Part shown: positions 15,346 to 33,243 of the stretch, piece after piece
How the letters are laid out: every line of letters starts with the position of its first letter
Position numbering within the stretch: the stretch's first letter is position 1
Translations under genes and position numbers: made by a program
Notes under the pieces: model-generated
Database searches by the model: none
Told to the model about the DNA's origin: nothing
The model's input: only the letters and a program-made list of their open reading frames with translations
Sequence record: DRR378314_1883
DNA length: 64,000 nucleotides
Reading direction: 5' to 3' (one strand)

Positions 15346-15384
15346 ATGGTCTACCATCAAAATACAAATGGCGTACCATAAGGA

Positions 15385-15454
15385 CCACTGGTCTACACAA
15401 AATGTCCATTCACCTAAAGTAGGGAATTATTACAATCTATTATTCGGTAATTTG
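15385..15454 (+). promoter_or_regulatory. Putative LytTR-type operator plus promoter of the signalling operon
   Basis: CCACTGGTCTAC (15385) and CCATTCACCTAA (15406), 21 bp apart; TTTG ends at 15454. Confidence 0.65.
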
Positions 15455-15478
15455 TAATTAACGGTAATACGACTTAAA

Positions 15479-15880
15479 ATGAATATTCTATTTATTGAAG
15501 ATGATGCTATAGAAACCATGAAACTTCAAAGAACTACGGTTAAGCTTGGTTTAAAACATAATATTATAGAAGCCAAAAATGGTGAGGAAGCCCTCACCGT
15601 TTTAAATTCCAATTCCCCATTGCCAGATCTTATTTTATTGGATCTCAATATGCCTAGAATGAACGGGATCGAATTCTTAAAAATACTTAAGGCGGACGTA
15701 AACTTTAGATACCTCCCAACTATTGTTTTAACAACATCGCAAAATAGGGCCGATTTATTGGAATGCTATAGGATTGGAATAGCCGGATACATTCTAAAAC
15801 CCTTAAAATATGAGGATTACGAGGATAAATTAAAAAAAGTATTGGAATATTGGGATATTAATGAACTTGTTAAGGCATAA
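15479..15880 (+). CDS. Single-domain response regulator
   Basis: IEDD, LLDLNMP, LTTS, KP motifs. Confidence 0.92.
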   Translation: MNILFIEDDAIETMKLQRTTVKLGLKHNIIEAKNGEEALTVLNSNSPLPDLILLDLNMPRMNGIEFLKILKADVNFRYLPTIVLTTSQNRADLLECYRIGIAGYILKPLKYEDYEDKLKKVLEYWDINELVKA

Positions 15881-15954
15881 CAGATTTCACGGGATTCACA
15901 ACAATTTATTTTCCATAAGTAATCGTTTTCCTACATTTGATCAAAACCTAAAAA

Positions 15955-16497
15955 ATGAAAGGAATTGTATTTACAGAATTTTTGGAAATGGTGGAATCCG
16001 AATTCGGTTTAGCAGTGGTAGACGCCATCATAGACGAATGCGATTTACCCTCCGAAGGCATCTATACTTCGGTTGGCACCTATGATTTTAATGAAATGGT
16101 TGCTTTAATTAAAAGTTTGAGCAATAATGTAGGCGTAGATTCCAATACTTTGATCTTTTCTTTTGGTCGTTATCTATTTACCAGTCTGGGCAAGGCACAT
16201 CCAGAAGTAATTCAAAGCTATAACAATCCACTAGGCCTTCTATATTCCATTGAAGACCATATACATGTCCATGTTCAAAAATTGTATCCAGAAGCTGAGT
16301 TACCCACATTTAAAATATTGGAAAAAACAGACACCTCCATTTCTATGATCTATTCCTCCTCCAGGGGTTTATATCGTTTGGCCCATGGTCTTATAGAAAA
16401 ATGTTTTGAACACTATAATGGATCTGCCCAAGTTTCCTATGAACTATTAAAGGCAGACGGTACCGAAGTGAAATTTGATATTATTCAAAATGGATAG
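15955..16497 (+). CDS. H-NOX haem NO-binding domain protein
   Basis: MKGIVF start, YTSVGTY, proximal His region IHVHVQKLYP, LPTF, YxSxR (YSSSR). Confidence 0.92.
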   Translation: MKGIVFTEFLEMVESEFGLAVVDAIIDECDLPSEGIYTSVGTYDFNEMVALIKSLSNNVGVDSNTLIFSFGRYLFTSLGKAHPEVIQSYNNPLGLLYSIEDHIHVHVQKLYPEAELPTFKILEKTDTSISMIYSSSRGLYRLAHGLIEKCFEHYNGSAQVSYELLKADGTEVKFDIIQNG

Positions 16498-18871
16498 TAA
16501 ACAAGAAATAATACTTCTCAAAAAGGCTTTGGAGCGACAGAAAAAAGCACGCATACAGGCCGAAAAAATCTTGGAAATCAAATCCAAGGAACTCTACGAT
16601 ACCTCCTTCCATTTAAAACAGGCAAATCATAAACTAGAAAGTTTATTAAATAAAAAAACTGCGGCCCTAAATGGCTCCTTTCTGGACATAATTGATCCCT
16701 ATGTAATCATGGACCTTAAGGCCAATGTCATAAATATGAACCTTTCTGCCAAAGAGTTTCTGGGTTATGACCATACAGTAGAACCTGTTAACTTAACACA
16801 ACTTGTACATAAAGATTACTTGGACTATACCAAGGAATCTTTCCAGATATTGATAAAAGCAGGGACAATCAAAAATTATAGGGCAAAAATCATACTTAAA
16901 AATAAGGAGGAAAGATATGTTCAGATAAACAGTAGCCTTATTTACGACCAGGACAGAAAACCCATTGCGGCCCAGGGAATTATAAGAGATATTAGCCAAG
17001 AAACAGAAATAAAACATTTGTTGGCAGAGCAAAAAAAACAACTTAATATCATAGTTGAAAATTCACCTCTTGGCATTGCATTAACCGTTAAAGGAAAAAT
17101 CATAAAGGCAAACCCTAGTTTTTGCAACCTCCTTGGGTACTCGACCAATGAGCTCAAAAATCAAACCATTAAGGATATTTCCGAACCTGTTGATTCCTTG
17201 GATTCGACGGACAAACTGGTTAAAATGAATGATGGAGAAATTGATAATTTTTCATGTATTAGAAAATACTTACGAAAAGATGGTAGCCATTTGTATGCCA
17301 AAACCCATATAAGCGCCGTAAGAAATAACCAAAATGAAGTAGAATTTCAAGTAACTACCATAGAAGACATTACCAAGGAAATGAAAGCGGAGGAAAAGTT
17401 AAAGGCCTCCGAAAACCGACTTTCTACACTTATACTAAACCTACAGACCGGGGTGCTCCTGGAAAATGAAGATCATAAAATCTCACTTACCAATCAACTT
17501 TTTTGTGACCTTTTTCAAATACCCGCCTCACCAGAGCAACTGATAGGGGCCGATTGTGTTGATGCGGCCGAGCAAAATAAGTCACTTTTTAAAAACCCAG
17601 ACTCCTTCGTGGCAAGAATTGAAAAAATTCTTAGCGATCAAGTTATGGTGGTCTCAGACGAACTGGAAATGGTAGATGGCAGAATCCTGGAGCGCGATTA
17701 TATCCCTATCTTTAATAATGGGGAATACAAAGGACACCTTTGGACATACCAAGACGTGACACTTAGTAGAAATTACAATAGAACTTTGGAAGCACAAAGG
17801 GAGAAATACAGTAGTATTATTGCTAACATGAATCTAGGACTTATTGAAGTAGACAATGACGATATTATTCAAATGGTAAACCAAAGTTTCTGCCAAATGA
17901 GCGCCTACTCCGAACAGGAATTATTAGGAAAAAAAGCAAAAGAGGTCATCAATATTACGGACAACACTATAATAAACGAAAAAAACCAAAAAAGGCTAGA
18001 AGGAAAGTCAGATTCCTATGAAATAGAAGTAAGGGATAAAAATGGGTCGTTAAAGCATTGGATGATCAGTGGGGCTCCAAGATATAATGAGTCTGGTGCC
18101 ATTATAGGGTCTATAGGCATACACTTGGATATTACAGAACAAAAACTGTTGCAATTGGAAAAATTAGAATTGGTCAAGGAATTGGAAAACAGTAATAAAG
18201 GATTACAAGAGTACGCCCATATAGTCTCACATGATTTAAAATCACCATTGCGAAGTATCATGGCCTTGTCTACATGGATGCTAGAAGACTACAGGGAGGT
18301 CTTGGATGAAGCAGGACAAAAAAATCTGCAATTGATGCAGGACAAAATAGAATTGATGGACAATTTGATCAGCGGCATTTTGGAATATTCAACTGCCAAT
18401 AGTTCCAATTTGGTCAATAGCGATATTGACCTAAACTGCGTGGTGTCAGATATAACCGATAGTATTTACATTCCAGAGCATGTCACCGTTACTGTACCTG
18501 TAAAATTACCAACCGTCTTGGCAGACAAAACAAAGATTCACCAATTGTTCCAGAATATTATTGGCAATGCCGTGGTACATATAGAAAAAGAAAAGGGACT
18601 GGTGGAAGTATTATGTTCGGAAACTGAAAACTACTGGCAGTTTACAATAAAGGATAATGGAGTAGGTATTCCCGAAAAATATCACACAAAAATATTTGAG
18701 ATTTTCCAATCTGTCGGTACCAATGAAAGATCTTCCGGAATCGGATTGTCTATCGTAAAGAAAATTGTAGATCGCTACAATGGACGTGTTTGGATAGATA
18801 GCCAAGTAGAGATTGGCACTAATTTTCATTTTACCCTTCAAAAAATTAAAAACAAACAACCCGTAACATGA
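16490..18871 (+). CDS. Cytoplasmic multi-PAS histidine kinase (H-NOX-associated)
   Basis: ATG 16490 overlaps the H-NOX end; N-terminal coiled coil ERQKKARIQAEKILEIKSKELY; about four PAS repeats; VSHDLKSP, DNGVGI, GIGLSIV. Confidence 0.92.
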   Translation: MDSKQEIILLKKALERQKKARIQAEKILEIKSKELYDTSFHLKQANHKLESLLNKKTAALNGSFLDIIDPYVIMDLKANVINMNLSAKEFLGYDHTVEPVNLTQLVHKDYLDYTKESFQILIKAGTIKNYRAKIILKNKEERYVQINSSLIYDQDRKPIAAQGIIRDISQETEIKHLLAEQKKQLNIIVENSPLGIALTVKGKIIKANPSFCNLLGYSTNELKNQTIKDISEPVDSLDSTDKLVKMNDGEIDNFSCIRKYLRKDGSHLYAKTHISAVRNNQNEVEFQVTTIEDITKEMKAEEKLKASENRLSTLILNLQTGVLLENEDHKISLTNQLFCDLFQIPASPEQLIGADCVDAAEQNKSLFKNPDSFVARIEKILSDQVMVVSDELEMVDGRILERDYIPIFNNGEYKGHLWTYQDVTLSRNYNRTLEAQREKYSSIIANMNLGLIEVDNDDIIQMVNQSFCQMSAYSEQELLGKKAKEVINITDNTIINEKNQKRLEGKSDSYEIEVRDKNGSLKHWMISGAPRYNESGAIIGSIGIHLDITEQKLLQLEKLELVKELENSNKGLQEYAHIVSHDLKSPLRSIMALSTWMLEDYREVLDEAGQKNLQLMQDKIELMDNLISGILEYSTANSSNLVNSDIDLNCVVSDITDSIYIPEHVTVTVPVKLPTVLADKTKIHQLFQNIIGNAVVHIEKEKGLVEVLCSETENYWQFTIKDNGVGIPEKYHTKIFEIFQSVGTNERSSGIGLSIVKKIVDRYNGRVWIDSQVEIGTNFHFTLQKIKNKQPVT

Positions 18872-20001
18872 AAATATTACAGGCCATTAAAATGAAAGGT
18901 TCAACCTTCAATTTTATCCAAGACCTACAAGTTCTAAAAAATCCACTTGTACTTGTTTTTGGAAATAGGTACATGTTACAGGCTAAGGATCTATATAGGG
19001 AAGTAAGAACTCTTTTCCCAAACGGACATATTGTTTTTGGCACTACTTCTGGTGAAATTATGGATGCCAATGTCTATGATGAGACTGTAGTTCTGACAGC
19101 CATAGAATTTGAAAAAAGCACTTTTCTTGTTAAGGCCAAAAATGTGGTTGATTTTGGCAACGATGACAAAAGCTTGGGACAGCAACTTATGTCCGAGTTT
19201 TCACAAGAGGGTTTACAGCATTTATTTATTGTTTCAGAAGGCAGTTCCGTAAATGGTAGCGCGCTGATTCATGGTGTGGAAATAAACAAGTTATGTAAGG
19301 TGGGCCTGTCAGGAGGATTATGTGGTGATGATGACCGATTTGAACTTACCTTATCATCATATAACGAACCCCCTAAAGAGGGTCAGGTGGTCGCAATCGG
19401 TTTCTATGGGGACACCTTGGAAATCACTAGTGCCAACTTTGGAGGTTGGACTGCATTTGGACCAGAGCGAATTATAACAAAGTCCAAGGACAATATCCTG
19501 TATGAATTAGATGGTAAGCCCGCATTGGACCTATATAAAAAATACTTGGGCAATAAAGCATCCGAACTTCCTAAATCGGCCTTGCTCTATCCGTTAAGTG
19601 TTAGAACACAAGGAGATTCCGAACCCATTGTTAGGACCATACTCAATATTGATGAATTGGAAAATGCCATGATTCTGGCCGGGGACGTACCTGAGAGATC
19701 TAAAGTTCAATTAATGATGTCTACTGTAGATGATATTGCCAACGGCGCTAATTTGGCAGCTAAAATAGCCATGCGAAATAGAAAAAATAAACCCGAATTG
19801 GCATTGCTCGTTAGCTGTATTGGAAGAAAATTAGTGATGGATCAGCGAACCGAAGAGGAGGTTGAAGAGGTTATTTCCGTAATAGGCCCAAGCGCCAAAA
19901 TTACAGGATTCTACTCCTATGGTGAAATGGCTCCCTTTGAAGGTCAAGAAACCTGTAAATTACACAATCAGACCATGACATTAACCTTATTCAGCGAATA
20001 A
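18868..20001 (+). CDS. FIST N/C domain protein (NosP-like haem sensor)
   Basis: GTTSGEI, GGLCGD, GGW, ELDGKPA, SCIGRK, GFYSYGE, HNQT. Confidence 0.9.
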   Translation: MKILQAIKMKGSTFNFIQDLQVLKNPLVLVFGNRYMLQAKDLYREVRTLFPNGHIVFGTTSGEIMDANVYDETVVLTAIEFEKSTFLVKAKNVVDFGNDDKSLGQQLMSEFSQEGLQHLFIVSEGSSVNGSALIHGVEINKLCKVGLSGGLCGDDDRFELTLSSYNEPPKEGQVVAIGFYGDTLEITSANFGGWTAFGPERIITKSKDNILYELDGKPALDLYKKYLGNKASELPKSALLYPLSVRTQGDSEPIVRTILNIDELENAMILAGDVPERSKVQLMMSTVDDIANGANLAAKIAMRNRKNKPELALLVSCIGRKLVMDQRTEEEVEEVISVIGPSAKITGFYSYGEMAPFEGQETCKLHNQTMTLTLFSE

Positions 20002-21077
20002 TGCATAACCTGCTCAAAAGACAACTCAAAAAGTATCTATCGGAAAACCTCAGTGAGGATGATGCCCTAAACCCTTTCTTAACAGCTGTTGAGAGGTCCT
20101 ACGAAAATTATGACGATAAACTGAGCATGTTGCAAAGAGCTACTACCATTAGTTCTGAAGAACTGTATGCAGCCAATCGCGAGCTGGAAAATGAAGCCCA
20201 ACGACAAAATCACATCCTTAATTCTTTAGAAAAAGCAATAACTAGTCTGGAAGCCAATCTAGAACATAAAAACCAATTGGATTATAACTCTGAAAACGAG
20301 TTTGATGCCGAAAAACTTGCAAAACATATAAGTGACCTGGCCAGAAAGGTGGCAAATATGGCTATGGAAAAAGATAATTTATTAAAAGATTTAAAAACCC
20401 AAAATGAATCACTGAACAATTATGCACATATAGTGTCTCACGATTTAAAATCACCGATTAGAAATATCAGTACATTGATGAATTGGATTTTGGAAGATGA
20501 AAAAGGGAAATTCTCACCGGAGAGTAGTATCAACTGTTCACTGATTACACAAAACCTTGGAAAAATGGACAAGCTTATAGATGGTATTTTAGAGCATGCC
20601 ACTATGGGTACCACAAATGAAAATTACGTTTCTTTCAGTTTAAAATCGGTACTGGACAATTTGAAACAAACGCTGTATATCCCTAAAAATATAAATATTA
20701 TATACGCTGACACACTGCCCATATTATTCTGTGAAATAAAACGTATTGAGCAGTTATTTATGAATTTAATTATCAACGCAGTAACAGCTACCGAGGAGAT
20801 TGAACAAGGGATTATTGAAATTAAGGCCAAAGATCAAGGCGACTACTGGAAATTTAGTATTACCGACAATGGTAAGGGAATTCCGGAAAATCATCAATCC
20901 AGTATTTTTGAAATGTTCAAAAAATTGGATACGGATAGTAAATCTACTGGTATTGGTCTTGCTTTAGTAAAAAAAATAGTAGATTTATACGAGGGTGAAA
21001 TTTCGTTGAAATCGGAGGAAAACAAAGGAACAACCTTTTTTTTCACATTAAAAAAACCATATGACCGAAGTACCTAA
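20001..21077 (+). CDS. Cytoplasmic histidine kinase (FIST-associated)
   Basis: MHNLLKRQL start, VSHDLKSP, DNGKGI, GIGLALV; no TM helix. Confidence 0.92.
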   Translation: MHNLLKRQLKKYLSENLSEDDALNPFLTAVERSYENYDDKLSMLQRATTISSEELYAANRELENEAQRQNHILNSLEKAITSLEANLEHKNQLDYNSENEFDAEKLAKHISDLARKVANMAMEKDNLLKDLKTQNESLNNYAHIVSHDLKSPIRNISTLMNWILEDEKGKFSPESSINCSLITQNLGKMDKLIDGILEHATMGTTNENYVSFSLKSVLDNLKQTLYIPKNINIIYADTLPILFCEIKRIEQLFMNLIINAVTATEEIEQGIIEIKAKDQGDYWKFSITDNGKGIPENHQSSIFEMFKKLDTDSKSTGIGLALVKKIVDLYEGEISLKSEENKGTTFFFTLKKPYDRST

Positions 21078-21381
21078 TCTTAATTACATAAAGGAGCTGG
21101 CCGGTGATGATATTGAGTTTGAGAAAAAATTCATCAGTATCATAAAAAAGGAGTTACCGGAAGAGGTAGATACATACCTGGGACAGATCCGAACAAATGA
21201 GCTATTAATGGCCGCTGAAACTGTACATAAATTAAAGCACAAATTTAACATCCTGGGACTAGAACAGGCCTACGGATATGCGGTAACCTATGAGGAAGAC
21301 CTTAGGAATGGCAATAATAAGATGGACATGGATTTTAGAGCAATACTTCAAAAAATAACAAAATACCTTACAACTATATAA
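21061..21381 (+). CDS. Hpt phosphotransfer protein
   Basis: 106-aa helical protein, LNYIKELAGDD start, VHKLKHK phospho-His motif. Confidence 0.85.
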   Translation: MTEVPNLNYIKELAGDDIEFEKKFISIIKKELPEEVDTYLGQIRTNELLMAAETVHKLKHKFNILGLEQAYGYAVTYEEDLRNGNNKMDMDFRAILQKITKYLTTI

Positions 21382-21382
21382 T

Positions 21383-22093
21383 ATGAATTGTATTATCATA
21401 GACGACGAGGCCGCGGCAAGGGCAATTGTAGCCCAATTATGCTCCAAAATATCGGAATTGGATGTTATTGCCGAATTTGATAATGCTATTGACGCATTAA
21501 AATTTCTAAATCAAGAATCCATAGATATTGTTTTCCTGGATATCCACATGCCTGGATTTTCTGGTGTCGATTTTGTACAGACCCTAAAAAATCCTCCTAA
21601 AATTGTACTGACTACCTCCGACACCAATTTTGCCATAGAGGCCTATGAATACGAGTCCATTGTGGACTACTTAGTAAAGCCTATTACCTTGGACCGCTTT
21701 CAAAAATCCGTTCAAAAATTAAAGAACATATGACAACAGTCACCCAATAGCCCATCTAAGAACGAAGGAGGGTCAGCCTCAGGGGAAGATCTTTATATCA
21801 ATATAGATAGACGCCTAATTAAATTGAAGCTGAATGAGCTTACGGTCATAGAAGCCAAAGGGGATTATATTGATATCAAGACCGAAAAAGAGGTGTATCA
21901 CGTACATACTACCTTAAAGAAAATTAAGGAGAAACTGCCGGAAAAGGTTTTCATGCAAATACATAGGTCTTTTATAATTAACTTCAGCAAAATTATAGAT
22001 ATTGAGGACAATAGCGTCTTAATAGGTAAGAACGTTATTCCGATCAGTCGCTCCAATAGACCTGAACTGATGCGAAGGCTAAACCTTCTGTAA
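21383..22093 (+). pseudogene. LytTR-family response regulator interrupted by in-frame TGA at 21731-21733
   Basis: REC ORF 21383-21733 and LytTR ORF 21824-22093 share a frame; reading through TGA gives QQSPNSPSKNEGGSASGEDLYINIDRRLIKLK into EAKGDY...QIHRSFIIN...PISRS. Confidence 0.88.
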
Positions 22094-22138
22094 AAACAGC
22101 ACAAATATATTGGACTTAACCTTCACACTGGAAGATTT

Positions 22139-24214
22139 TTAATTCGATTTGCTTTCCGCCTCCAAATTGGCAAAGAACAATGGCTGTTTGGTCAAGGACC
22201 ATTTTAGTTTAAATCCAATTTCCGTAAATTCAAAACCAGCGGCCGTGGCCGATGCTATATTGCTATATTTGCCGTAAATACTTCCACTGAGACGTTTGCC
22301 AAATTGGTGCTGCATGGAAGCCTCTGCCCTGAAAATTGCAGTTTGAGGGTCGTTTTCCACCTTTTGAATTCCTGTAGCCACACTGGCCATATAGTTGGTA
22401 TGAGTGGATATTTTTCCCCTGATATCCCCAAAAACTTCCCCAGCCTGATATTTTTCTGGGCTAAAATATATGGTAGGCACTTGCTCTCCGAAGGTGATAT
22501 ACTGATAATTAAGACCGAACTTTAATGCCGGTTTCTGTAATACCGTATAATACAAAGAGGTAAATAAGAGGTTACGACTGTTGTTGTCGGTCTGCTGGGT
22601 GTACATCAATTGCGTATACCAACCCAAATTTACATTGGTGCCCAGATTGTAATTAAGTCCATAATGATTCATCACAATTTCGCGCTCTATCAAATCAGCA
22701 TTAAAATTCTGCACTTCCCTTTGGTAGCCAAGTTCTAGATTTTGCAACTTAAAAGGCTTTATTTTTAATTTGGCATCCAAAACCGGTTGTGTGTAAGCTG
22801 TTTCCATAAACCTACTGTTATTGAATCCCAATACAGTGGCCATATCTACATTAGGGGCCAATTTGTATCCAAAACCAACCAACACAACATGGGATTCCGC
22901 CTTATTCTGGGTAACCGTATTCTCTGTAGTTCGGTACTGGTAGTTTAGTGTGGTTTTAAATTTGGTGGAAAAAGGTACAAAGGCATTTACGGAACTGGAA
23001 AAAGCCACGTTATTTCCATTGTCAAAGGTATAGGCAGCATGTTCTTCAATACTTGGGGTATGCAAACCATTGAGTTTTTCAATAAAACCTTGTGCATCCT
23101 TTTGATTCTTAAAAATTTTCAAGGTCTGAAATGCCGCCTTATAAGCAGGTACGATTCTATCTGAAGCAAAAAGTGCATTTGCCTTGCCTAGGTTTCCGTC
23201 AAAAGAAACACTGTCCTTAGCGAGTATGGCATCATAGCTTGATAAACTTGCCTTAAAATCACCGGTATACATTCCTAGTGTAGCATTTAATGCCTGAACC
23301 CAATTGCCATTCGGATATACCAGGGCTAGACGGTCTATTTCCTTTCTGGCTTCGGCAAACTTCCTATTCCATATCAGGGCCTGCACATAGCGGTCGAAGG
23401 TGTGCTGATTAAGCACCGGATCGCCAAATGACTCCACTTTTTCTTTAGCTTCCAAGGCCATTTTCAGAGCCATTTTTTCATTTCCGGCTATGTGTTCTGC
23501 AAGTGCAATTCCATTTATAGCGGTGATGGAATCTTTAGCGGATGTGGCATATCTTCGGTAGGTATTTTTGGCACTATCCGTCTCTTTGGTTATCAATTGT
23601 AGGTTGGCCAAATTCAACAATACCTCCTTATCTTCTGGAAAGTCTCCAAAAATTTCCTGTAGCAATTGTTGTCCCATCCCATAATTTTGTGCATTCACAA
23701 ACTCATTGGCGTATCCCAATTTTATATACTTCCTTGAAATCTTGGCACCTTCATTATCCGGTTGCAGTGCTATGGCCTTATTTACCCAATTCAGTGCCGT
23801 TTCATATTCCCTTAGATTGCTCAAGGTATTGGCATACCCCAACAAAGCCCCAAACTTATCTGGATTTTTGGCCACCATATCCTTATATAGGGGTTTGGCC
23901 TCCTTAAATTTTCCTGCCCATAAAAGGGATTCTATATAATTTATGGCCACCTCGTAATCATTGGGGTACTTTTGTTGTAAATCTCCAAATAAAGCATTGG
24001 CCGTTTTAGGCGCTCCATTTAGTCCTACTGCCCTTCCGTAACAAATCTGTGCGGTCTTGTTTTCGGAATCCGATTCCAAAAAGGCTTCAAAAAAAATCTC
24101 GGCATCTGCAAAATTACCATTTTCCAAAAGTTCAAATCCCTTTTGCATAGATTGCTGGGCCTGTATGGAAAATGACAATAATAAGAATGTAGTAATTAAT
24201 TTATAAATATTCAT
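22139..24214 (-). CDS. TPR-repeat protein with C-terminal outer-membrane beta-barrel (PgaA/PelB/BcsC-like architecture)
   Basis: Signal peptide, about 380 aa of TPR-like helices, then alternating aromatic strands including YFSPEKYQ. Confidence 0.75.
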   Translation of the reverse strand: MNIYKLITTFLLLSFSIQAQQSMQKGFELLENGNFADAEIFFEAFLESDSENKTAQICYGRAVGLNGAPKTANALFGDLQQKYPNDYEVAINYIESLLWAGKFKEAKPLYKDMVAKNPDKFGALLGYANTLSNLREYETALNWVNKAIALQPDNEGAKISRKYIKLGYANEFVNAQNYGMGQQLLQEIFGDFPEDKEVLLNLANLQLITKETDSAKNTYRRYATSAKDSITAINGIALAEHIAGNEKMALKMALEAKEKVESFGDPVLNQHTFDRYVQALIWNRKFAEARKEIDRLALVYPNGNWVQALNATLGMYTGDFKASLSSYDAILAKDSVSFDGNLGKANALFASDRIVPAYKAAFQTLKIFKNQKDAQGFIEKLNGLHTPSIEEHAAYTFDNGNNVAFSSSVNAFVPFSTKFKTTLNYQYRTTENTVTQNKAESHVVLVGFGYKLAPNVDMATVLGFNNSRFMETAYTQPVLDAKLKIKPFKLQNLELGYQREVQNFNADLIEREIVMNHYGLNYNLGTNVNLGWYTQLMYTQQTDNNSRNLLFTSLYYTVLQKPALKFGLNYQYITFGEQVPTIYFSPEKYQAGEVFGDIRGKISTHTNYMASVATGIQKVENDPQTAIFRAEASMQHQFGKRLSGSIYGKYSNIASATAAGFEFTEIGFKLKWSLTKQPLFFANLEAESKSN

Positions 24215-24467: not shown

Positions 24468-25706
24468 ATGATGACCATATCCAATATAGTAATCAAAAAA
24501 ATTTCCCCCGCACAGTTGTTTATGGGTAGTGCGCTCCTAGTAAATGGGGGCAACTACCTGTACAACTTAGCTTTGGGAAGAATACTCGGGCCTGAGGCCT
24601 TTGCTGAAGCGGCACTGTTGATCACCCTTTTATTGGTATTATCCTTTATAGGAATGACGTTTCAATTGGTAACCGCCAAGTTTGCCGTTTTGCTTTCAGA
24701 TGAGGATTACTCCCATTTTCAAAACACTATCTATACCTATTCGCTTGCTTTTGGTATGGCCATTGGAATAATGGTAATTTATTTTGCCCCAGAGCTCCAA
24801 ATTTTGTTCCAAACCCAAAATACCTGGATGTTTACCATATTTGGTGTTGGTATCCCCATTTATTTTTTAATGAGCGTCAATCGCGGTAAATATCAAGGTT
24901 TCCAAAACTTTGGAAAACTATCCTTTACCTACCAGACGGAAATGTGGAGCAGATTGATCATCACCGTGCTCTTGTTAATTTTACTCCCATTTGAGCCTGC
25001 CATCCTGGTGGCGCTTGGAATAGGACTTTCTTTTCTTTTTGGATTGATTCCGATGGATTTTAAAGAGGTGACAATTTTTACAAAAAATAGACTTTCCAAA
25101 GCCAACACAAAAAAAGTGCTTCAATTCATAGGACTCACCGCTGGCTATGAACTAACACAGATTATTATTAATAATAGTGATATTCTTTTGGTTAAGCATT
25201 ATTTTGATGCTTTGGAAGCAGGTTTATATGCCTCTTTAGCTTTGATTGGTCGCGTTGTCTATTTTGTTGCATGGATGTTCGTAATGTTATTGTTGCCAAA
25301 AGTGGTCCAAAAACACAAGGACGGAGAGCCCACAGTTCCGGTACTTTCAAAATACATAGGATTTATTGGCATGTTATCCCTGGGCATTGTTATGGCTTGC
25401 TATCTGTTTCCAGGAACAATAATTAATTTATTGTTCGGAGAGGCCTACCTATCCATGGCCCCTTTACTATGGCAATATGCCCTAGCTACATCGCTTTTCG
25501 CCATCTCCAATATTTTTGCCTACTATTTTCTGTCATTGGACCATTACATACCGGTAATTCTATCTGGTATTCTAGGGGTTTCCCAGGTGTTGTTGATTGT
25601 TCTGTTTCACAGTAGCCTTACTATGATAGTCCAAATTCAGATTATAGTAATGGTCGCGTTACTGGCGGCTCAGGCACTCTACTTTTTTAGCAAATCCATA
25701 AAGTAA
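24468..25706 (+). CDS. Oligosaccharide flippase (Wzx/MOP family)
   Basis: About 12 TM helices; NYLYNLALGRILGP, SDILLVKHYF, AGLYAS. Confidence 0.88.
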   Translation: MMTISNIVIKKISPAQLFMGSALLVNGGNYLYNLALGRILGPEAFAEAALLITLLLVLSFIGMTFQLVTAKFAVLLSDEDYSHFQNTIYTYSLAFGMAIGIMVIYFAPELQILFQTQNTWMFTIFGVGIPIYFLMSVNRGKYQGFQNFGKLSFTYQTEMWSRLIITVLLLILLPFEPAILVALGIGLSFLFGLIPMDFKEVTIFTKNRLSKANTKKVLQFIGLTAGYELTQIIINNSDILLVKHYFDALEAGLYASLALIGRVVYFVAWMFVMLLLPKVVQKHKDGEPTVPVLSKYIGFIGMLSLGIVMACYLFPGTIINLLFGEAYLSMAPLLWQYALATSLFAISNIFAYYFLSLDHYIPVILSGILGVSQVLLIVLFHSSLTMIVQIQIIVMVALLAAQALYFFSKSIK

Positions 25707-25846
25707 TACTTTGCAATTAAAAATATAATTCTATGGCACCTCTGCCCCCAGAGCGGTTATTTTTGAGGATAAAGTCTAGGCAATGGACCAAAACTAAAAA
25801 CAATTAATGGGCAATTTCCTTAAAACAATTTAACCGAACACCTTTA

Positions 25847-25916
25847 CCATTGGTCTATACAAAAGAGCCAACCACCTCTAATCATCCATATTTATAATAC
25901 TTATGGGTGATATTTG
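25847..25916 (+). promoter_or_regulatory. Putative LytTR-type operator plus promoter of the GT4 gene
   Basis: CCATTGGTCTAT (25847) and CCAACCACCTCT (25868); GATATTTG ends at 25916. Confidence 0.65.
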
Positions 25917-25957
25917 TCCCAGAAATTAATTCTAAATCTTAACACAAAACTTGACCT

Positions 25958-27187
25958 ATGAAATTAGCCATTGTAACTGCCTACCCTCCCAGTAAAGTAA
26001 CCCTAACGGAATACGGATATCACCTAGTGAAGCACTTTAGGTTACAAAATGAGGTCAGCGAAATAGTTTTGATTTGCGACAGGACCTCTGAGGAAAAAGA
26101 CCTGAACTTTGAGGGGGAAGGCTGTAAAATAAGCGTTAAGGAATGCTGGAATTTTAATAGCTATACCAACCTTTTAAGCATTAGCAAAACCATTACGGAG
26201 ACTAATCCGGATGCCGTATTGTTCAATCTACAGTTCTTAAAATTCGGCGATAAAAAAATCCCGGCCGCCCTAGGTCTACTTCTTCCTTTGATATGTAAAC
26301 TAAAAGGTATCCCCACCATTTCCTTGTTGCATAACATTATGGAACAGGTGGACTTAAAAAATGCAGGTATCACCAAAAATATCATTTTGCAAAAGGCCTA
26401 TAACCTCATAGGAACTACCCTGACCAAGTTTGTTTTGGCATCCGATGTACTTGCCGTAACTATCAGTAAATATGTAGATATCCTAGAGAAAAAATACAAG
26501 GCCAGAAACGTTGCACTGGTTCCTCATGGAGCCTTTGAAACACCTCCAGAACCAGATTATTGCTTACCAGAAGGTCCAAAACAAATCATGGCATTTGGTA
26601 AATTCGGCACCTATAAAAAGGTAGAAATACTTATAGAGGCCGTTGAAATTATCAGAAACAGGACAAGTATGGATTTAGAAATCGTAATTGCAGGTACAGA
26701 TAGTCCCAATACTCCTGGATATTTGGAAGGAATCAAGAAAAGTTATCAACATGTACCGCAAATGAGGTTTACAGGGTATGTTGCCGAGGAAAATGTTCCC
26801 GTGATTTTCTCGGAGAGTGCGGTTACTGTATTTCCCTACACTTCCACCACAGGTAGTTCGGGGGTATTGCACCAGGCCGGCAGTTATGGTAAGGCCGTTG
26901 CCCTTCCCGACTTGGGAGATCTGAGTATTCTGGTAAAAGAAGAAGGATATAAAGGAGAGTTTTTCAAGCCAGACAGTGCAGAATCTTTGGCCAATGCCAT
27001 AGAAAATATTCTAAAAGACGATTCCTATCGTATCCAACTGGGAATGAACAATTATAAAGCTGCCTGCTCTTTGCCCATGTCTGAAATCACCAATATGTAC
27101 GTGAATTATTTTAAAGCGATTCAATTGGCGAAATCCGAAGGGTTTTCTATAAAACTACCAAAAAAAGTAGCCGAGTTGGAGAAATAG
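25958..27187 (+). CDS. Glycosyltransferase, GT-B fold (GT4-like)
   Basis: TAYPP, VPHG, FGKFGTYKKVE, VFPY-TSTTGSSGVL. Confidence 0.9.
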   Translation: MKLAIVTAYPPSKVTLTEYGYHLVKHFRLQNEVSEIVLICDRTSEEKDLNFEGEGCKISVKECWNFNSYTNLLSISKTITETNPDAVLFNLQFLKFGDKKIPAALGLLLPLICKLKGIPTISLLHNIMEQVDLKNAGITKNIILQKAYNLIGTTLTKFVLASDVLAVTISKYVDILEKKYKARNVALVPHGAFETPPEPDYCLPEGPKQIMAFGKFGTYKKVEILIEAVEIIRNRTSMDLEIVIAGTDSPNTPGYLEGIKKSYQHVPQMRFTGYVAEENVPVIFSESAVTVFPYTSTTGSSGVLHQAGSYGKAVALPDLGDLSILVKEEGYKGEFFKPDSAESLANAIENILKDDSYRIQLGMNNYKAACSLPMSEITNMYVNYFKAIQLAKSEGFSIKLPKKVAELEK

Positions 27188-27228
27188 AATTAAGTTTAAG
27201 GTTAAGTGAGGAAAGGGGAACGGTTTGG

Positions 27229-28782
27229 CTAATCGTTCTCCTTTCTATTTTTGGAAGTATTGTTTAGAAAGTAGAAAGCTTTTTTTGGTTTACCTGCCAA
27301 ATCCAAGCAACCAAAATATCTTTGGGGTTCCCTTCTCCATGGCCGCTTGCCCACTACTGAAGACGGAACCCCTTCAAAATCGTATAAGGTCCAGAAAAGA
27401 AAAGGTATTTCGGCCTTCTCTAGAATAGGTTGAAATTCCTCATAATAAGCCGCCTGTTTATCTTCCGAGTTTAGAAAAGCATTCCACACTCCACTATAGG
27501 AAGACCTCCCATATTCCTGAAGTACCGCAGTTTTATCTTTTGGAATTGCGTTTCGCAATTTTTGATAGGAAGGTATAAAACCCGAAATTTCCCTGTAATA
27601 GTGAAAAGAAACAAAATCCACTACCTCTGCCATATTTACCGCAGCCTCCGGACTGGACCATCCTATGGTGATAGGATGCACCCCGTCCCATTTTTTTATC
27701 CGTAGAGCCAGCTCATTTAACCAGGCCATTACATTTTCTTTTCCCCTAGACCCAAAGTCCAAATCGGGTTCGTTTTTGAGGTCCCAGGCCAATAAACTAG
27801 GATGGTCCTTTAAGGTGGTTACCAACTTTTCAGCATGTGCAAATGTAGCTGTCCAATTGGCAACACTATAATCTCCATAAAAATCAAAGAGGGTGATGAC
27901 CACCTTGAGGCTTTCCTTATCCGCAGCATCCAAAAGGGTCCTGACTTTGGCAAGTCTGTCTTCATTTACCCGTGCCTCCCCAAAGTCCGAATACGGAATA
28001 AATATACGGACAGTGTTGAGACCCATATCCCTAATAATTCTAAAATCAGACGAAATAACCTTTTCGTTAAACCGATTTCCAAAAGTATCCCACGGACTGT
28101 CCTGTGGATAATAATTGAGTCCTTTTATTTTACTTAATGCCTCCGTATTATCAACGCCAATTACGGGCCCTTCCTTCACCTCAGGTTCGGTTATTACCCT
28201 AACAAAATGACGTACCCTCCAAAAGCCGTCCTCCAAAAGCATAATTACCTGGAATGTTGCTGTTTCCCGATATTCCAAGACGGGATTGCCATCTATAAAT
28301 CCCTTCTTATAAAGTGACACATTCTTATCTAGAAAAGAGATTTGGGTTCCATCGGTGCTATAGAAATTCAATTTGGGCCAATGTTCCAAAGTGGTTTGTA
28401 CAAAGGTGGTACCCTTTTCCTTGTTTATGTTGAGTATTTTAAAAAGTTTGGTCCTCGCACTTTCGGTAAAGTAGTCGGCAATGCCGTATTGATTGTTGGT
28501 AGCTAGGGAGGCATTTTTCACGTACCAACCATTAAGATAGTCCCGTTCAACTTTTTCCAAAGTTTGTGGCTCAATTGGGCGGCCTTCCACGGAAGTGGTA
28601 TCCCAAACCACCTTGGGAAAATAAATTTGAGCCTTTTCTCCACCTATATGCAGAAGGGTGGAGCGCTCCGCACCGGTATTGAGATAGGACCAAACCGAAC
28701 TTATCCCGAAAAGCACCAATGCATTAATGGCCAGGAATGTACCAATCAAAAGAACCCTTAAGATGTTTTTATTCCACTTCAT
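27229..28782 (-). CDS. Membrane-anchored clan GH-A glycoside hydrolase (GH5/GH2-like TIM barrel)
   Basis: N-terminal TM; KGLNYYP, GLNTVRIF, acid/base WDLKNEPD, SFHYY, nucleophile LQEYG, FWTL. Confidence 0.85.
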   Translation of the reverse strand: MKWNKNILRVLLIGTFLAINALVLFGISSVWSYLNTGAERSTLLHIGGEKAQIYFPKVVWDTTSVEGRPIEPQTLEKVERDYLNGWYVKNASLATNNQYGIADYFTESARTKLFKILNINKEKGTTFVQTTLEHWPKLNFYSTDGTQISFLDKNVSLYKKGFIDGNPVLEYRETATFQVIMLLEDGFWRVRHFVRVITEPEVKEGPVIGVDNTEALSKIKGLNYYPQDSPWDTFGNRFNEKVISSDFRIIRDMGLNTVRIFIPYSDFGEARVNEDRLAKVRTLLDAADKESLKVVITLFDFYGDYSVANWTATFAHAEKLVTTLKDHPSLLAWDLKNEPDLDFGSRGKENVMAWLNELALRIKKWDGVHPITIGWSSPEAAVNMAEVVDFVSFHYYREISGFIPSYQKLRNAIPKDKTAVLQEYGRSSYSGVWNAFLNSEDKQAAYYEEFQPILEKAEIPFLFWTLYDFEGVPSSVVGKRPWRREPQRYFGCLDLAGKPKKAFYFLNNTSKNRKEND

Positions 28783-30001
28783 TTTGGGTCAATTTTAAAA
28801 TCATTTCTTTTTTTACACCTGCGCATTCCACAGCTAATTGATAATCCCCAACGGCATACAGTCCACTATCAAGTTCAAAGGACCCCAAACCTGATCTGGA
28901 ATTGGTTTGTTTGACTTCAATTAAATCTCCTTTGCTATCGTAAATTTTTAATTCTATAAGTAGTCCTTCCGGCACCAATTGCCCCATAAATCCAAGTATC
29001 GGCCCTACTGTGACGTTGCGATTATCGTTGGCTAATTTCACGTCAAAATCTTTTATGGCACTTTTAAAATTCAGCTGAAGCTCATTGCTCTTTGCCTCAC
29101 CCGTAATATACGCAGTAACCCCCCATTCTTCCTCCTCATTAGGGTGCAACATATTGGAGGTTGCAATTCCGGCCAAGGTAGCCCCCATAGATTTGAGCAA
29201 TTCACCACGCTTATTTTTAACTATGAAATTAACCAAGGTTCCATCGTTAACCGTATTCCCAAACCTATCCGTTATTAGTGAGGTTATAAATCTCACGACT
29301 TGATTACCATCCGCAAAATCATGTACGCGTTCAAATCCAATTTTGAAATCAGTACTATTGGAGGGGGATACAATGCTTGTAAGCTCTTTGGAAGTTACCC
29401 CGTTTACCGCCGCAGTAACCAACATACGTCCCGATTTTTCTTCCCCATAAAGTAGGCTATAGGCAAGACCATCTTTAAGGCGAACTTCAAATACATTGGT
29501 TTTGAAATCTATTAGTTGGCTGATAGACACTACAGTACTATCCGGAAGTGGGTTGTCATAATCGTCGGTTGGGATAATGGTAAGCATGGAATAATCTTTT
29601 CCCCCTGCCCTAATACTTCTTGGGCCAAAATAGGTTTCTATTTTGGAGAGATTCCCAATCCGCGGACCAAGATAAAATTTGTCCGACAACAGTACCTTGG
29701 AATTGGATACGAGCTTCCAGTGGTATTCCCCAGCCTCTTCCGTGAATTCTGGGGGTATATTGAACATGGCCTTATCATTGATTATTTTAGGCTGAAAAAA
29801 CAGGGGACCAAAACTATTGTCCAACAAAAGAAAAAGATTTCCCTTTCCTTGAAGTTGGAATTGGAATTCCAAGCCTTTCCCAACGGTTGAAGGCTGAGAA
29901 ACAGCCACTACTTCCACCTTCAGATCGGTATTGAGTGCCTCCTCCCTCTCCTTGCAACCAAGGCCCATCAACAATACCAAAATGTAGAGCTTCCACTTCA
30001 T
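28769..30001 (-). CDS. Lipoprotein with Ig-like (invasin/Big-type) repeats
   Basis: ATG at 30001 gives MKWKLYILVLLMGLGC lipobox; repeated motifs DDYDNPLPDST, DRFGNTVNDGT, GQLVPEG. Confidence 0.65.
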   Translation of the reverse strand: MKWKLYILVLLMGLGCKEREEALNTDLKVEVVAVSQPSTVGKGLEFQFQLQGKGNLFLLLDNSFGPLFFQPKIINDKAMFNIPPEFTEEAGEYHWKLVSNSKVLLSDKFYLGPRIGNLSKIETYFGPRSIRAGGKDYSMLTIIPTDDYDNPLPDSTVVSISQLIDFKTNVFEVRLKDGLAYSLLYGEEKSGRMLVTAAVNGVTSKELTSIVSPSNSTDFKIGFERVHDFADGNQVVRFITSLITDRFGNTVNDGTLVNFIVKNKRGELLKSMGATLAGIATSNMLHPNEEEEWGVTAYITGEAKSNELQLNFKSAIKDFDVKLANDNRNVTVGPILGFMGQLVPEGLLIELKIYDSKGDLIEVKQTNSRSGLGSFELDSGLYAVGDYQLAVECAGVKKEMILKLTQNEVE

Positions 30002-30002
30002 A

Positions 30003-33000
30003 TTATCTTGGATTTCCAATATAACTGTTCAGTTCCAACTTTATAAATTGAAACCCAGATCCCTTAAGTGGCTGTAGTTGGTCATATGAATGCTGCCGAA
30101 TCCGTTCTTGAATCACTTTTCCTGCAATTTGCGCATTGGGCAGGCCATTAACAAAACAGTTTTTTAGACTGCTGTCGACAATCTCCAACCCTCCCAATTC
30201 CAAATTATTGTAATGGAACGACTGTTTGCGCTGTACGCGGACCCCTTCACGTACAAATTTGTGGTCCACCCAAAGAAGATTTTTCTCAGTATCGTAATAA
30301 GAAATCAATAGTAAGGGAATGGTTACTTCCTGAACCCCTGAATTGTACAGTTGTCCCTTAAACCCGTTTGGCAACAATTGTAATTCCTGTAGCACCAATC
30401 CCTTATAAAGATCGGTATTGGCCACATTTCCCGCACACTGCAAATTGAATTTGGTAGGTTGCTCCGAAAATTGCACTGGTGTAAATTCATCTGGATTGAA
30501 AGTAGGAGGAATAGTGTCTTTGGTCTGTGACCATGCAATGCCTTCAAAATTAATTTTAAAGGTGGTGGTTTCCATTGGCATTAGCTTATGCTTCAGATGA
30601 AACTTGGCATTATAATTGGCCAATTCTTTATCGTCATCATTGTACAGGGTGGCCTTTAACACCACGTCGGCAGGTACATTGTCCACATTCTGCAACTCGC
30701 CGATAACCGAGTAACTACCGTCCATTTTAACCAATTTGGCACTGAGCACCTCCAGAACAGGTTGTTTCAGTACATCCTCATGATGGGTCTGTTCTGTGGT
30801 TATTTTTCGGCGACCATGGTTATAAAAAGTAGTACTGTTGGAAGTAAACAATTGATCAGGGGGAATGTCGCTATCTAAATAGGAAGGTTCTATATACCAT
30901 TTCCCTTGACGTTTTACCAAATCATGATTATAGGTCTTTTGTATTCTTTCCAAGGGGGTTACCCAATAGGTTTTTACCTCCGCCCTGGCATTTTGGTCAG
31001 TCTCATTGGATAGTTTTATTTCCATGGCGTCCAATTTGGCATAGGAGCTTAGGATACCATCGGTTACAGATACTTCCTGCATATATTGGGCAATCGAAAT
31101 TTCCTTTTCTATATCCAAAAATGAGTGTGCTGTCTCAAATTCCTTAAAATCCAAGGCATTATAATAGGCCTTAACCACATTTTGTGGAGACCTTTGGGCT
31201 GTGTTGTGGATATAAAATTGGTAGATTCCAAATCCGAACAACGATAAGACCAAGAATGCCCAGAGATGATTTACACTGATAAGGAATGATGGAAATTTCC
31301 TATATTCAATAGCATACTTCATATAGTCCGGCTGTTGGATCATTCTTGAATTAAGTATTCGAATCCAGAGCAGTTGAATATTGATAACAAAGGCTATCAC
31401 TACCGTTAGAATAGGCACAATGCCCCACATTAGCTTCAGCCATTGGGCTACATCCTCTTTGGGAAGAATGGAGGGCACCGGGGGTACGTTTAATTTTTCC
31501 CAAACCATAATACCATTTTCCAACTGTTGTAGACGTTGCCATCCACAGAAATAAAGGATGGGGTCATAGAATTTATCATTACTAAAGATATACTTTAGGT
31601 TATACTTTTCCGGAACGGTCAAAAACTGCTGAAGGGAACCAATACCTTCTACCCCCCTAAATTTCGAATTCTCCAAACGCTCAATGGCCCTGGTCGTCAA
31701 TTCCGGTAATCGTCTTGCAGAATGATAATTACCATCAACGGTCATGGCATTTGTCTGCGACGAGAGCCAAGCCATTTGATCCCCGAAACCCAAGGGCAAA
31801 TATCGCCACTGGTCGTGTTGGTCCTGATTTAAAAAATTGACGATGGGCAACATTTTTATTTTTTGGGGTTGGGAAGGTCGAAAATACCCCAAACTCATTG
31901 TAAAAATCACCATTAAAAGTATACTGCCACCTATTAAAATACTAAGCACCCTATGATAGAAAGCCCCAAATCGTTGCTGAAGTTGAAGTTTTAGATCCCC
32001 TTCGGCCAATCTATAGATGAATTCCCCAAAAATAGGTAATGCCATTATGGTAGCCCAAAGGGTGAAACGGTCCAAGGTCAGAATATTAAAAGCTGTTTCG
32101 CCCAATACCTTCAGTGGAATTGGGGTTGTACCCCCAGTGCCCAAAATAGTAAGTACCGATATGGACAAACCAAAGAACAAATATCGTTTACTGTAAAACC
32201 GGTAAAAAATATAGGGCAGAAAGAACAGCAGGATTCCCCAAGGCACAATAAAGAAAACCAGACCTGAAGAGGTCACTTCCAAAAAATTATCCCTGGAACC
32301 ATGTGGAATGGGGATTTGGGTAATAGGGTTCTTTTTGGAATTGACCCAATAGGGCAAAATACAGACCACTATTAATACCAAAGAGGAAAAACCAAATCCA
32401 ACTATACGCCAAAAGAGCTGTTTAAAAGATTTGAAGAACACCTTAAAAGTTAATTCCCTATTGGTAGATACCTTATCACGGGATACATCCATAACGACCA
32501 TTCCAATTAATGGAAAGACAAAAAATACCATTCCAAAAATAGGTGTAACATGATGAGAGGTAACCGTTACGGCAATCAATGATAAGGAAGTGAGTAAATA
32601 ATGCGACCTCCCCGTTTTGATCCATAGATATATCTCAGGCAGGGCATGCAAAAGAACTGAAAGTCCAATAATACTGGGTAACTGCCCAAATATATGTAAG
32701 GTTTCTATAAAGGTTGTGGAAAATACCGCCATCAAGGAAGTATAGCCTGCTACTTTTTGATTCCCCGTCATTAAAAGCCCAAAACGGTAAGTACCTGTAA
32801 TAAAAAGAACAATTCCCAAAAGAGCTACCGTGAACAATCCAAATTTTAAGCCACCAACATAGGATAAAAGGGCAATGGATTGATGAACTAAAGGTGGATA
32901 ACCCTGAACTGTAAACCCCGTATACCATCTATAATCCCATGGTTCGAACCAACTATTGGCATAATGATCGGCAAAAAAAAGATGGATCAAAGCATCATAG

Positions 33001-33089
33001 GTAGATTCCAATGTAAAAAAAATACTGGCACCGTGAAATGTAAGTCCAAAAAACAGGGCCAAGACCAGTAAACTATTGGTGTTTTTCAT
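30003..33089 (-). CDS. Large polytopic membrane protein, GT-C-like glycosyltransferase with C-terminal soluble domains
   Basis: TYDALIH after TM1, WYTGF..GYPPL loop, more than 12 TMs, SHH motif; C-terminal repeats resembling FxLYD Ig-like domains (VIGELQN...ATLYNDD; GQLYN...SYYDTE). Confidence 0.65.
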   Translation of the reverse strand: MKNTNSLLVLALFFGLTFHGASIFFTLESTYDALIHLFFADHYANSWFEPWDYRWYTGFTVQGYPPLVHQSIALLSYVGGLKFGLFTVALLGIVLFITGTYRFGLLMTGNQKVAGYTSLMAVFSTTFIETLHIFGQLPSIIGLSVLLHALPEIYLWIKTGRSHYLLTSLSLIAVTVTSHHVTPIFGMVFFVFPLIGMVVMDVSRDKVSTNRELTFKVFFKSFKQLFWRIVGFGFSSLVLIVVCILPYWVNSKKNPITQIPIPHGSRDNFLEVTSSGLVFFIVPWGILLFFLPYIFYRFYSKRYLFFGLSISVLTILGTGGTTPIPLKVLGETAFNILTLDRFTLWATIMALPIFGEFIYRLAEGDLKLQLQQRFGAFYHRVLSILIGGSILLMVIFTMSLGYFRPSQPQKIKMLPIVNFLNQDQHDQWRYLPLGFGDQMAWLSSQTNAMTVDGNYHSARRLPELTTRAIERLENSKFRGVEGIGSLQQFLTVPEKYNLKYIFSNDKFYDPILYFCGWQRLQQLENGIMVWEKLNVPPVPSILPKEDVAQWLKLMWGIVPILTVVIAFVINIQLLWIRILNSRMIQQPDYMKYAIEYRKFPSFLISVNHLWAFLVLSLFGFGIYQFYIHNTAQRSPQNVVKAYYNALDFKEFETAHSFLDIEKEISIAQYMQEVSVTDGILSSYAKLDAMEIKLSNETDQNARAEVKTYWVTPLERIQKTYNHDLVKRQGKWYIEPSYLDSDIPPDQLFTSNSTTFYNHGRRKITTEQTHHEDVLKQPVLEVLSAKLVKMDGSYSVIGELQNVDNVPADVVLKATLYNDDDKELANYNAKFHLKHKLMPMETTTFKINFEGIAWSQTKDTIPPTFNPDEFTPVQFSEQPTKFNLQCAGNVANTDLYKGLVLQELQLLPNGFKGQLYNSGVQEVTIPLLLISYYDTEKNLLWVDHKFVREGVRVQRKQSFHYNNLELGGLEIVDSSLKNCFVNGLPNAQIAGKVIQERIRQHSYDQLQPLKGSGFQFIKLELNSYIGNPR

Positions 33090-33172
33090 TAATGGATTGT
33101 AACAGAATTATAACAATTTAAAGGTAGCATTATTGTATAAGAGTCTATATATCAGTCATCGCATCAAAAAAT

Positions 33173-33243
33173 CCATTCACCTACAGAAAACAGCCACTCA
33201 ACTTTTGACCATCATTTTAAAGGGTAGCTTGTTGCTACATTTG
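33173..33243 (+). promoter_or_regulatory. Putative LytTR-type operator plus promoter of the REC-GT2 gene
   Basis: CCATTCACCTAC (33173) and CCACTCAACTTT (33194); consensus -7 TACATTTG ends at 33243. Confidence 0.65.

Follow-up and report, generated by a model that had tools for sequence, protein, structure and literature searches.

Phased direct repeats at four promoters of a flavobacterial exopolysaccharide island as probable operators of its own REC-LytTR regulator

Four pairs of 12-bp direct repeats were analysed in a 64,000-nucleotide stretch of sequence record DRR378314_1883 (hereafter the window), whose host is a marine flavobacterium. The pairs share the consensus CCATTCGTCTAC and a period of 21 bp, and they lie within a sensor-plus-exopolysaccharide island of ~19.2 kb, upstream of the genes for a stand-alone receiver (REC) protein, a flippase, a GT4 glycosyltransferase, and a GT2 glycosyltransferase fused to a receiver (REC-GT2). 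On comparative evidence, they are very probably the operators of the REC-LytTR response regulator encoded in the same island, and we regard them as predicted binding sites of the classical LytTR type in a new phylum and a new regulon. A first-pass annotation of this sequence had suggested that the repeats are sites for the local LytTR protein. This suggestion is supported by the conservation of the motif, its rarity elsewhere, its co-occurrence with orthologues of the regulator, and its fit to known LytTR sites.

Each of the four pairs is intergenic and on the plus strand (Table 1). The eight 12-mers described in the first-pass annotation were found where it had placed them, exactly 21 bp apart within each pair, and the genes it had named downstream of them (REC, flippase, GT4, and REC-GT2) were confirmed by the listing of open reading frames and by Pfam. 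Two weaker copies upstream of the first pair also exist as claimed, but at 15343 and 15365, one base away from the positions first given for them (15344 and 15366). Their register is 22 and 20 bp, and a third upstream copy is also seen in some orthologous REC promoters. Expressed as 9-bp cores (CCATTCGTC), the 21-bp period of the 12-mers corresponds to a gap of 12 bp at all four window promoters. A lone half-site without partner (CCATTCGCCAAC, 24426-24437, 13.5 bits) follows the -7 box within the leader of the flippase gene.

The repeats hold a nearly fixed position relative to the putative -7 boxes. The TTTG of the box ends at 15454, 24393, 25916, and 33243, which is 48, 48, 48, and 49 bp past the start of the second repeat, as had been noted earlier. 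Measured from the start of the distal repeat, the distance to the TTTG end is 69 bp at promoter 1 and 70 bp at promoter 4, compared with 69 bp in the orthologues of the latter. The box of REC-GT2 is the only one of the four that conforms to the consensus, in agreement with the earlier statement that three are non-consensus. In Flavobacterium psychrophilum, the sigma-A box TAnnTTTG spans -12 to -5, a position that can also be taken by a variant, TAnnTTGY (PMC9723704). If the boxes of the window likewise occupy -12 to -5, the 12-mers would cover about -74 to -63 and -53 to -42 and would end just upstream of the expected position of the -33 element.

The occurrence of the repeats at four promoters is correctly observed and is far from chance. 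In a leave-one-promoter-out test, a half-site matrix built from three promoters was scanned as a 21-bp pair on both strands of the window (128 kb). The omitted promoter ranked first among the non-training places each time (27.1, 25.0, 20.2, and 22.9 bits), while the best unrelated place scored 9.2-11.4 bits and the other high-scoring rows were true sites shifted by 21 bp. The pattern CCRYTSRNCTAY-N11-ANYSRNC, which was derived from the four sites, matched four times in the window and not once in 100 dinucleotide shuffles. Half-sites taken one at a time showed no enrichment in the window: 8 scored above 12 bits, whereas the shuffles averaged 4.5 and reached 8 at most. Therefore only the paired pattern was used. 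The non-random part is the pairing and placement of the half-sites.

According to a review on AlgZR (PMC4064291), LytTR regulators bind imperfect direct repeats of 8-13 bp that are ~12 bp apart, the core of the AlgR site is CCGTTCGTC, and one AlgR site reads CCGTTCATC. The core of the island repeats matches this AlgR core at 8 of 9 positions and differs from it by one base, and several orthologous sites read CCGTTCGTCTAC or CCGTTCATCTAC and contain the AlgR core exactly. The 9-bp core, the 12-bp gap, and the one-base distance of the predicted operators from the AlgR core fit the LytTR sites published in the review (PMC4064291). Like the regulator described here, AlgR of Pseudomonas aeruginosa is a REC-LytTR protein with nearly the same core, and it controls an exopolysaccharide pathway, a control that is predicted for the island. 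On the other hand, according to the same review (PMC4064291), many AlgR sites are solitary, lie far upstream, lie downstream, or are inverted, and they need not be tandem pairs spaced by 12 bp, whereas the tandem pair and the promoter distance are near-invariant here. The arrangement differs, and we do not class the sites as AlgR sites.

AgrA, ComE, and PlnC, which act in quorum sensing of Firmicutes, resemble the predicted system in having two direct repeats ~12 bp apart immediately upstream of a core promoter with weak elements, and a site, here a predicted one, before the regulator's own operon. For AgrA, PMC4227749 describes two direct repeats immediately upstream of the weak P2/P3 promoters, with the proximal repeat centred near -60, whereas the proximal repeat of the island would be centred near -48. 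The core promoters also differ, with a Bacteroidota sigma-A -7 box here and -35/-10 elements there. The input here would be a multi-kinase relay with H-NOX and FIST proteins, in contrast to a peptide pheromone, and the predicted targets here are polysaccharide genes. No described LytTR operator of flavobacteria or Bacteroidota was among the papers listed by our literature search, and a search with the 9-mer gave, among the matches listed, only unrelated papers of the primer type.

Conservation was assessed in 401 sampled genomes of the family. REC-GT2 had 78 full-length matches with at least 59% identity in 73 of these genomes. Twenty loci from other family genomes, representing many genera, were taken with ~18 kb upstream, and the cluster was present in all of them with some rearrangement. 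Its conserved order is REC, H-NOX, PAS kinase, (FIST, kinase), Hpt-like, and REC-LytTR, followed by the TPR/outer-membrane gene, the flippase, GT4, the GH5, Big_1, and 1028-residue protein genes, and REC-GT2. In loci with REC-LytTR, sites of at least 12.5 bits on the coding strand precede REC, flippase, GT4, and REC-GT2, and in many loci the flippase site precedes a gene for a 112-residue STAS-like protein ahead of the flippase. The majority of the orthologous sites read exactly CCATTCGTCTAC. In three loci (L045, L047, and L049), GT4 and REC-GT2 follow directly after the flippase and have no promoter or site of their own.

The first-pass annotation had tied its reading to conservation in orthologous promoters. 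In many genera these promoters do keep the motif, and its distance from the -7 box is rigid. Repeat pairs with a 21-bp period occur at about 50 orthologous promoters. Among 50 promoters chosen by a loose distal pattern plus TTTG at 68-70 bp (three further rows were judged to be chance and dropped), the distal start lies 69 bp from the TTTG end in 45, 68 bp in three, and 70 bp in two. When flippase promoters were scanned with the matrix only, with no TTTG required, the distance was 69 bp in 12 of 13 and 68 bp in the remaining one. The information content was calculated for 42 non-window promoters with an offset of 69 bp from 16 loci, in which some distal positions are fixed by the selection pattern: the distal repeat carries 1.68 bits per position, the -7 box 1.33, and the proximal repeat 0.84, against 0.27 for the 28-bp gap and 0.17 for the DNA upstream. 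Positions outside the selection pattern are also kept, with C at distal position 2 in 40 of the 42 promoters, A at distal position 11 in 41, and C at proximal position 9 in 41.

These values bear on the possibility that the four promoters are alike by descent from promoter duplication, in which case the repeats would be no binding sites and at most a structural or UP-like element. The promoters of GT4 and REC-GT2 have in common TTTG-YYCCAGAAAT (CCAGAAAT) after the box (25913-25925 and 33240-33252) and ACTTRACCTATG at the start codon (25947-25960 and 33289-33302), which could reflect common descent; both elements are kept in orthologues (TCAGAAAT and CTTAACCTATG) and may be start-site and translation-initiation signals. 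However, the gap and the upstream DNA have decayed while the repeats have been kept, with a spacing fixed within 1 bp across genera, and therefore the repeats and their phase are kept by selection and not by inheritance. Since the motif is also lost together with the regulator gene, as described below, we give promoter duplication a very small chance. It is also scarcely credible that the repeats are -35-like and -10-like elements for an alternative sigma factor of the extracytoplasmic function (ECF) type and not activator sites. The core does contain CGT/CGTC, but both elements are one sequence directly repeated and not two different boxes, a conserved sigma-A-type box is fixed 69 bp downstream, Pfam detects no gene for a sigma or anti-sigma factor among those of the island, and the motif tracks the LytTR gene.

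The reading of the repeats as REC-LytTR operators is borne on by clusters that lack the regulator gene. In three loci (L046, L048, and L050, from genomes G016, G227, and G293, respectively), the Hpt-like gene abuts the TPR gene and REC-LytTR is absent. No repeat pair was found at any of the four promoters of these loci, the best dimers scoring -7.6 to 8.7 bits compared with 13-36 bits elsewhere. The same three genomes carry a LytTR orthologue (84-87% identity) at a second locus, where a strict pair stands in every case before a REC paralogue, which is followed by a small open reading frame and REC-LytTR. Pairs also precede the flippase-like gene (36-38% identity across the second loci) and the GT4-like gene (44%) at one second locus (L053), and a single half-site precedes the flippase-like gene at another (L055); at the third, no pair or half-site was found before these genes. 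Since the motif is lost with the gene and reappears at the second locus, it travels with the regulator gene and not with the REC-GT2 cluster. In the window, in the orthologous loci, and in the minimal modules of the second loci, a repeat pair precedes REC, the first gene of the regulator's own operon, which suggests autoregulation.

Scans of whole genomes point in the same direction. An exact 12-mer scan of the 401 genomes was too noisy (about one chance match per genome), and therefore a strict paired pattern was used. It gave 22 matches in five whole genomes, 16 of them in the cluster, against one for the reversed-pattern control, and 200 matches against 48 for the control in all 401 genomes, so that the motif is not common in other DNA of these relatives. 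With LytTR orthologues called at an expect value (E) of 1e-35 or better, at least two strict dimers were present in 42 of 138 LytTR-positive and in 2 of 263 LytTR-negative genomes, although related genomes are not independent. The mean number of strict dimers per genome was 1.12 in LytTR-positive and 0.17 in LytTR-negative genomes, with 0.12 for the control pattern, and the matches in the two LytTR-negative exceptions (G220 and G312) are scattered over different contigs. Among the six out-of-cluster matches in the five genomes, one (G322:C1:3123969-3123998) has the typical AGAAAA spacer and may be a genuine extra target, while the other five look like chance. A recurrent strict match (CCATTCATCTACATCRTAATAAAA...) turns up in many genomes at places unrelated to one another (for example G001:C3:2026589, G140:C1:920444, and G293:C1:413520), and some of these genomes are LytTR-negative; it is probably a conserved coding stretch that inflates the background count.

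REC-LytTR is the only protein of the island in which Pfam finds a DNA-binding domain. Its REC half matches PF00072 (E 1.1e-19) and its LytTR half matches PF04397 (E 2.7e-19; 69.6 bits, cut-off 22.6), while a phmmer search of the LytTR half against solved structures gave nothing at E 0.01 or better. By eye, the REC half has an acidic pair (D7-D8), D53 (in FLDIHMPG), T78/S79, and K99 (in LVKP) at the usual places, which presumably serve as the acceptor Asp and the Thr/Ser and Lys of the phosphorylation site, as in the general receiver pattern. The DNA-binding half is near-invariant across genera. In the window, the two halves are in one frame and are separated by a TGA codon. All 16 orthologues examined are uninterrupted and have Ser, Ala, Thr, or similar at this place. 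A near-identical contig (X1), possibly the source of the window, also has the TGA, at a depth of 28.5, and three contigs from other strains or samples (X8, X11, and X2; ~96% identical) have ACA instead. Within 21730-21771, these three differ from the window at 18 further positions, 21 in all, with no indels, whereas far fewer differences are found in the rest of the gene. Since the DNA-binding half is otherwise undamaged, the TGA change is recent. The only common in-frame start downstream of the TGA is a TTG at 21824, and a product begun there would lack the first strand of the domain. TGA followed by C, as here, is a leaky stop context, and some read-through is possible. Given the position of the TGA between the REC and LytTR halves, the regulon may be silent or weakly inducible in this strain.

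Several observations weigh against the assignment of the repeats to REC-LytTR. Since the regulator of the window is interrupted by the TGA, the sites in this strain may now lack a functional binder. One locus (L051) has the LytTR gene and yet only a half-site with a weak partner before REC, with no sites before its other genes, and another (L047) has no site between the 1028-residue protein gene and the flippase operon. Of the 138 LytTR-positive genomes, 57 have no strict match and 96 have at most one, and therefore the association is one-sided or the motif drifts. As the genomes are related, a Fisher test of the LytTR association overstates the case. LytTR paralogues are many in flavobacteria, with up to 66 candidates in one genome in a first-look count. 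The paralogues, the genomes without a strict dimer, and the near absence of sites at L051 would also be compatible with another factor, either a LytTR paralogue or an unrelated regulator whose gene lies outside the island, that binds the repeats while the local REC-LytTR acts elsewhere. But the motif moves with the same orthologue group to a second locus, is lost from clusters that lost REC-LytTR, appears in LytTR-negative genomes at the control rate, and always stands before the operon that encodes the regulator, whose DNA-binding half is near-invariant across genera as is the motif. We consider such a factor improbable and retain the island's own REC-LytTR as the predicted binder.

Table 1. 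Predicted operators, -7 boxes, and genes of the island in the window.
Feature	Coordinates	Strand	Description
Weak extra repeat copies (two)	15343-15354 and 15365-15376	+	upstream of operator 1; each 9/12 consensus positions
Island (regulator, presumed operators, target genes)	15346-34516		boundaries approximate
Predicted operator 1	15385-15417	+	distal 15385-15396 CCACTGGTCTAC; 9-bp spacer; proximal 15406-15417 CCATTCACCTAA; before sensor/regulator operon
Putative -7 box, promoter 1 (REC)	15447-15454	+	GTAATTTG, two mismatches; one base rightward, TAATTTGT fits the variant TAnnTTGY of PMC9723704
Stand-alone REC	15479-15880	+	first operon gene; PF00072, E 5.7e-20
Sensor and relay genes (overall span)	15955-21381	+	Pfam matches
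H-NOX	15955-16497	+	PF07700
PAS histidine kinase	16475-18871	+	Pfam
FIST protein	18868-20001	+	Pfam
Second kinase	20001-21077	+	Pfam
Hpt-like protein, 106 residues	21061-21381	+	Pfam Hpt below threshold (E 0.0064; 17.1 bits, cut-off 24.6)
REC-LytTR response regulator	21383-22093	+	REC 21383-21730; TGA 21731-21733; LytTR half 21734-22093; one frame
TPR protein, 691 residues	22139-24214	-	TPR families; weak likeness to PgaA, BcsC, PrsT; kept in cluster; divergent from flippase promoter
Predicted operator 2	24324-24356	+	distal 24324-24335 CCATTCGTCTAC; proximal 24345-24356 CGATCCGTCTAC; before flippase
Putative -7 box, promoter 2 (flippase)	24386-24393	+	GATATTTG, one mismatch; GGATATTTG kept at 69 bp in orthologues
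Flippase (Polysacc_synt_3)	24468-25706	+	PF13440, E 3.4e-12
Predicted operator 3	25847-25879	+	distal 25847-25858 CCATTGGTCTAT; proximal 25868-25879 CCAACCACCTCT; before GT4
Putative -7 box, promoter 3 (GT4)	25909-25916	+	GATATTTG, one mismatch; kept at 69 bp in orthologues
GT4 glycosyltransferase	25958-27187	+	PF13692 and PF00534
Divergent operon	27229-33089	-	kept in cluster; GH5 27229-28782, Big_1 protein 28769-30019, 1028-residue protein 30003-33089; Pfam
Putative variant -7 box of divergent operon	33113-33120	-	TAAATTGT (TATATTGT in orthologues); inside conserved block 33100-33140
Predicted operator 4	33173-33205	+	distal 33173-33184 CCATTCACCTAC; proximal 33194-33205 CCACTCAACTTT; before REC-GT2
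Putative -7 box, promoter 4 (REC-GT2)	33236-33243	+	TACATTTG, consensus
REC-GT2 glycosyltransferase fusion	33300-34439	+	PF00072, E 1.6e-25; PF00535, E 5.4e-24

In the nearest genome compared (G001), ~45 unrelated bases take the place of the island, and an APH kinase-like gene on its left abuts a sulfatase gene on its right. This genome has no LytTR orthologue and no REC-GT2. Since the flanking genes are joined there without the island, the regulator, its presumed sites, and the targets form one unit, which a genome has either entire or not at all. The island junctions showed no integrase, tRNA, or flanking repeat. Samples that share at least half of the sampled words come from algae, plastic, marine, sediment, tidal-flat, biofloc, and estuary sources, and no RNA sample is listed among them.

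The TPR protein is probably a polysaccharide export porin. Facing its divergent gene, GGAAGTG lies at 24302-24308, 9-10 bp upstream of the distal repeat on the flippase side; it is kept in the window and in four orthologous flippase promoters (L034, L035, L038, and L042), and L036 has GGAAGTC. The 1028-residue protein is 65-79% identical across genera and always accompanies the Big_1 and GH5 genes. Pfam and NCBIfam assign it to no family, its one match being a sub-threshold one to DUF624, and NCBIfam likewise has no family for the flippase or the Big_1 protein. Since the minus-strand box between this gene and REC-GT2 fits the TAnnTTGY of PMC9723704, it is probably the promoter of the divergent operon. 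The conserved block 33100-33140, between the 1028-residue protein gene and the fourth repeat pair, also holds a short inverted repeat (ACAAT...ATTGT). In the three loci without LytTR (L046, L048, and L050), the same intergenic region upstream of REC-GT2 contains a palindrome of similar type that is longer and near-perfect (AATAACAACAATAA ... TTATTGTTAT). The palindrome and the inverted repeat may be the site of a second regulator. In some genomes, the LytTR gene is followed by a gene for a secreted protein of ~810-830 residues (L034, oriented, 2906-5344; L053, 10122-12626), whose motif FEDxxxDxxxCDNDFND we take to be typical of DUF4114. The L034 copy has its own repeat pair upstream, with a box at 69 bp, and the protein may be an extra regulon member.

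These features suggest a mechanism in which signals at the H-NOX (a haem sensor) and FIST modules would feed the PAS kinase and the second kinase, and phosphate would reach REC-LytTR and REC-GT2 through the stand-alone REC and the Hpt-like protein, as judged from their domains. Two phosphorylated copies of REC-LytTR would occupy the 9-bp cores, 12 bp apart, in head-to-tail order and would recruit RNA polymerase to promoters whose -7 box is weak or variant and which lack a clear -33 element. The targets would be the regulator's own operon, giving positive feedback, and the flippase, GT4, and REC-GT2 genes. Two divergent operons that share the intergenic regions (TPR/outer-membrane export protein; 1028-residue protein, Big_1, and GH5) are possible further targets. 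The output would be the synthesis and export of an exopolysaccharide, and the receiver fused to GT2 suggests a second, post-translational layer of control.

The gene arrangement resembles the H-NOX/kinase biofilm signalling of Shewanella, Vibrio, and Legionella, in which an H-NOX gene also stands beside a histidine kinase gene and the output is likewise linked to polysaccharide or biofilm. Those systems are known to act via c-di-GMP enzymes or quorum-sensing relays, whereas the island is predicted to act through a LytTR transcription factor and a glycosyltransferase fused to a receiver. Our literature search listed no paper that describes a system of H-NOX with LytTR in Bacteroidetes or Flavobacteria.

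Taken jointly, a first LytTR operator of Bacteroidota, a self-contained and transferable regulon, a gas/redox phosphorelay with H-NOX and FIST, a two-level control of exopolysaccharide, a swappable module, and a DNA core shared with AlgR form a picture that we rate at slightly less than an even chance of holding in full. If it is true, the island would control at once transcription, through phased LytTR pairs, and enzyme activity, through the receiver on GT2. A module of regulator plus operator could be detached from one polysaccharide cluster and attached to another, with G016, G227, and G293 as examples, and the DNA core shared with AlgR would hint that a recognition code is conserved across phyla.

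LytTR regulators are abundant in Bacteroidota, and a precise, testable consensus is now given (CCATTCGTCTAC with a 21-bp period and 69 bp to the end of the -7 box), together with a compact list of targets. The clusters with and without the regulator, and the strains with TGA or ACA in the linker, provide a natural experiment. The H-NOX and FIST sensors of marine Flavobacteriaceae are thereby linked to a concrete predicted output, a pathway of exopolysaccharide export, which probably matters in colonising surfaces, and this predicted output makes the role of H-NOX in Bacteroidota directly testable.

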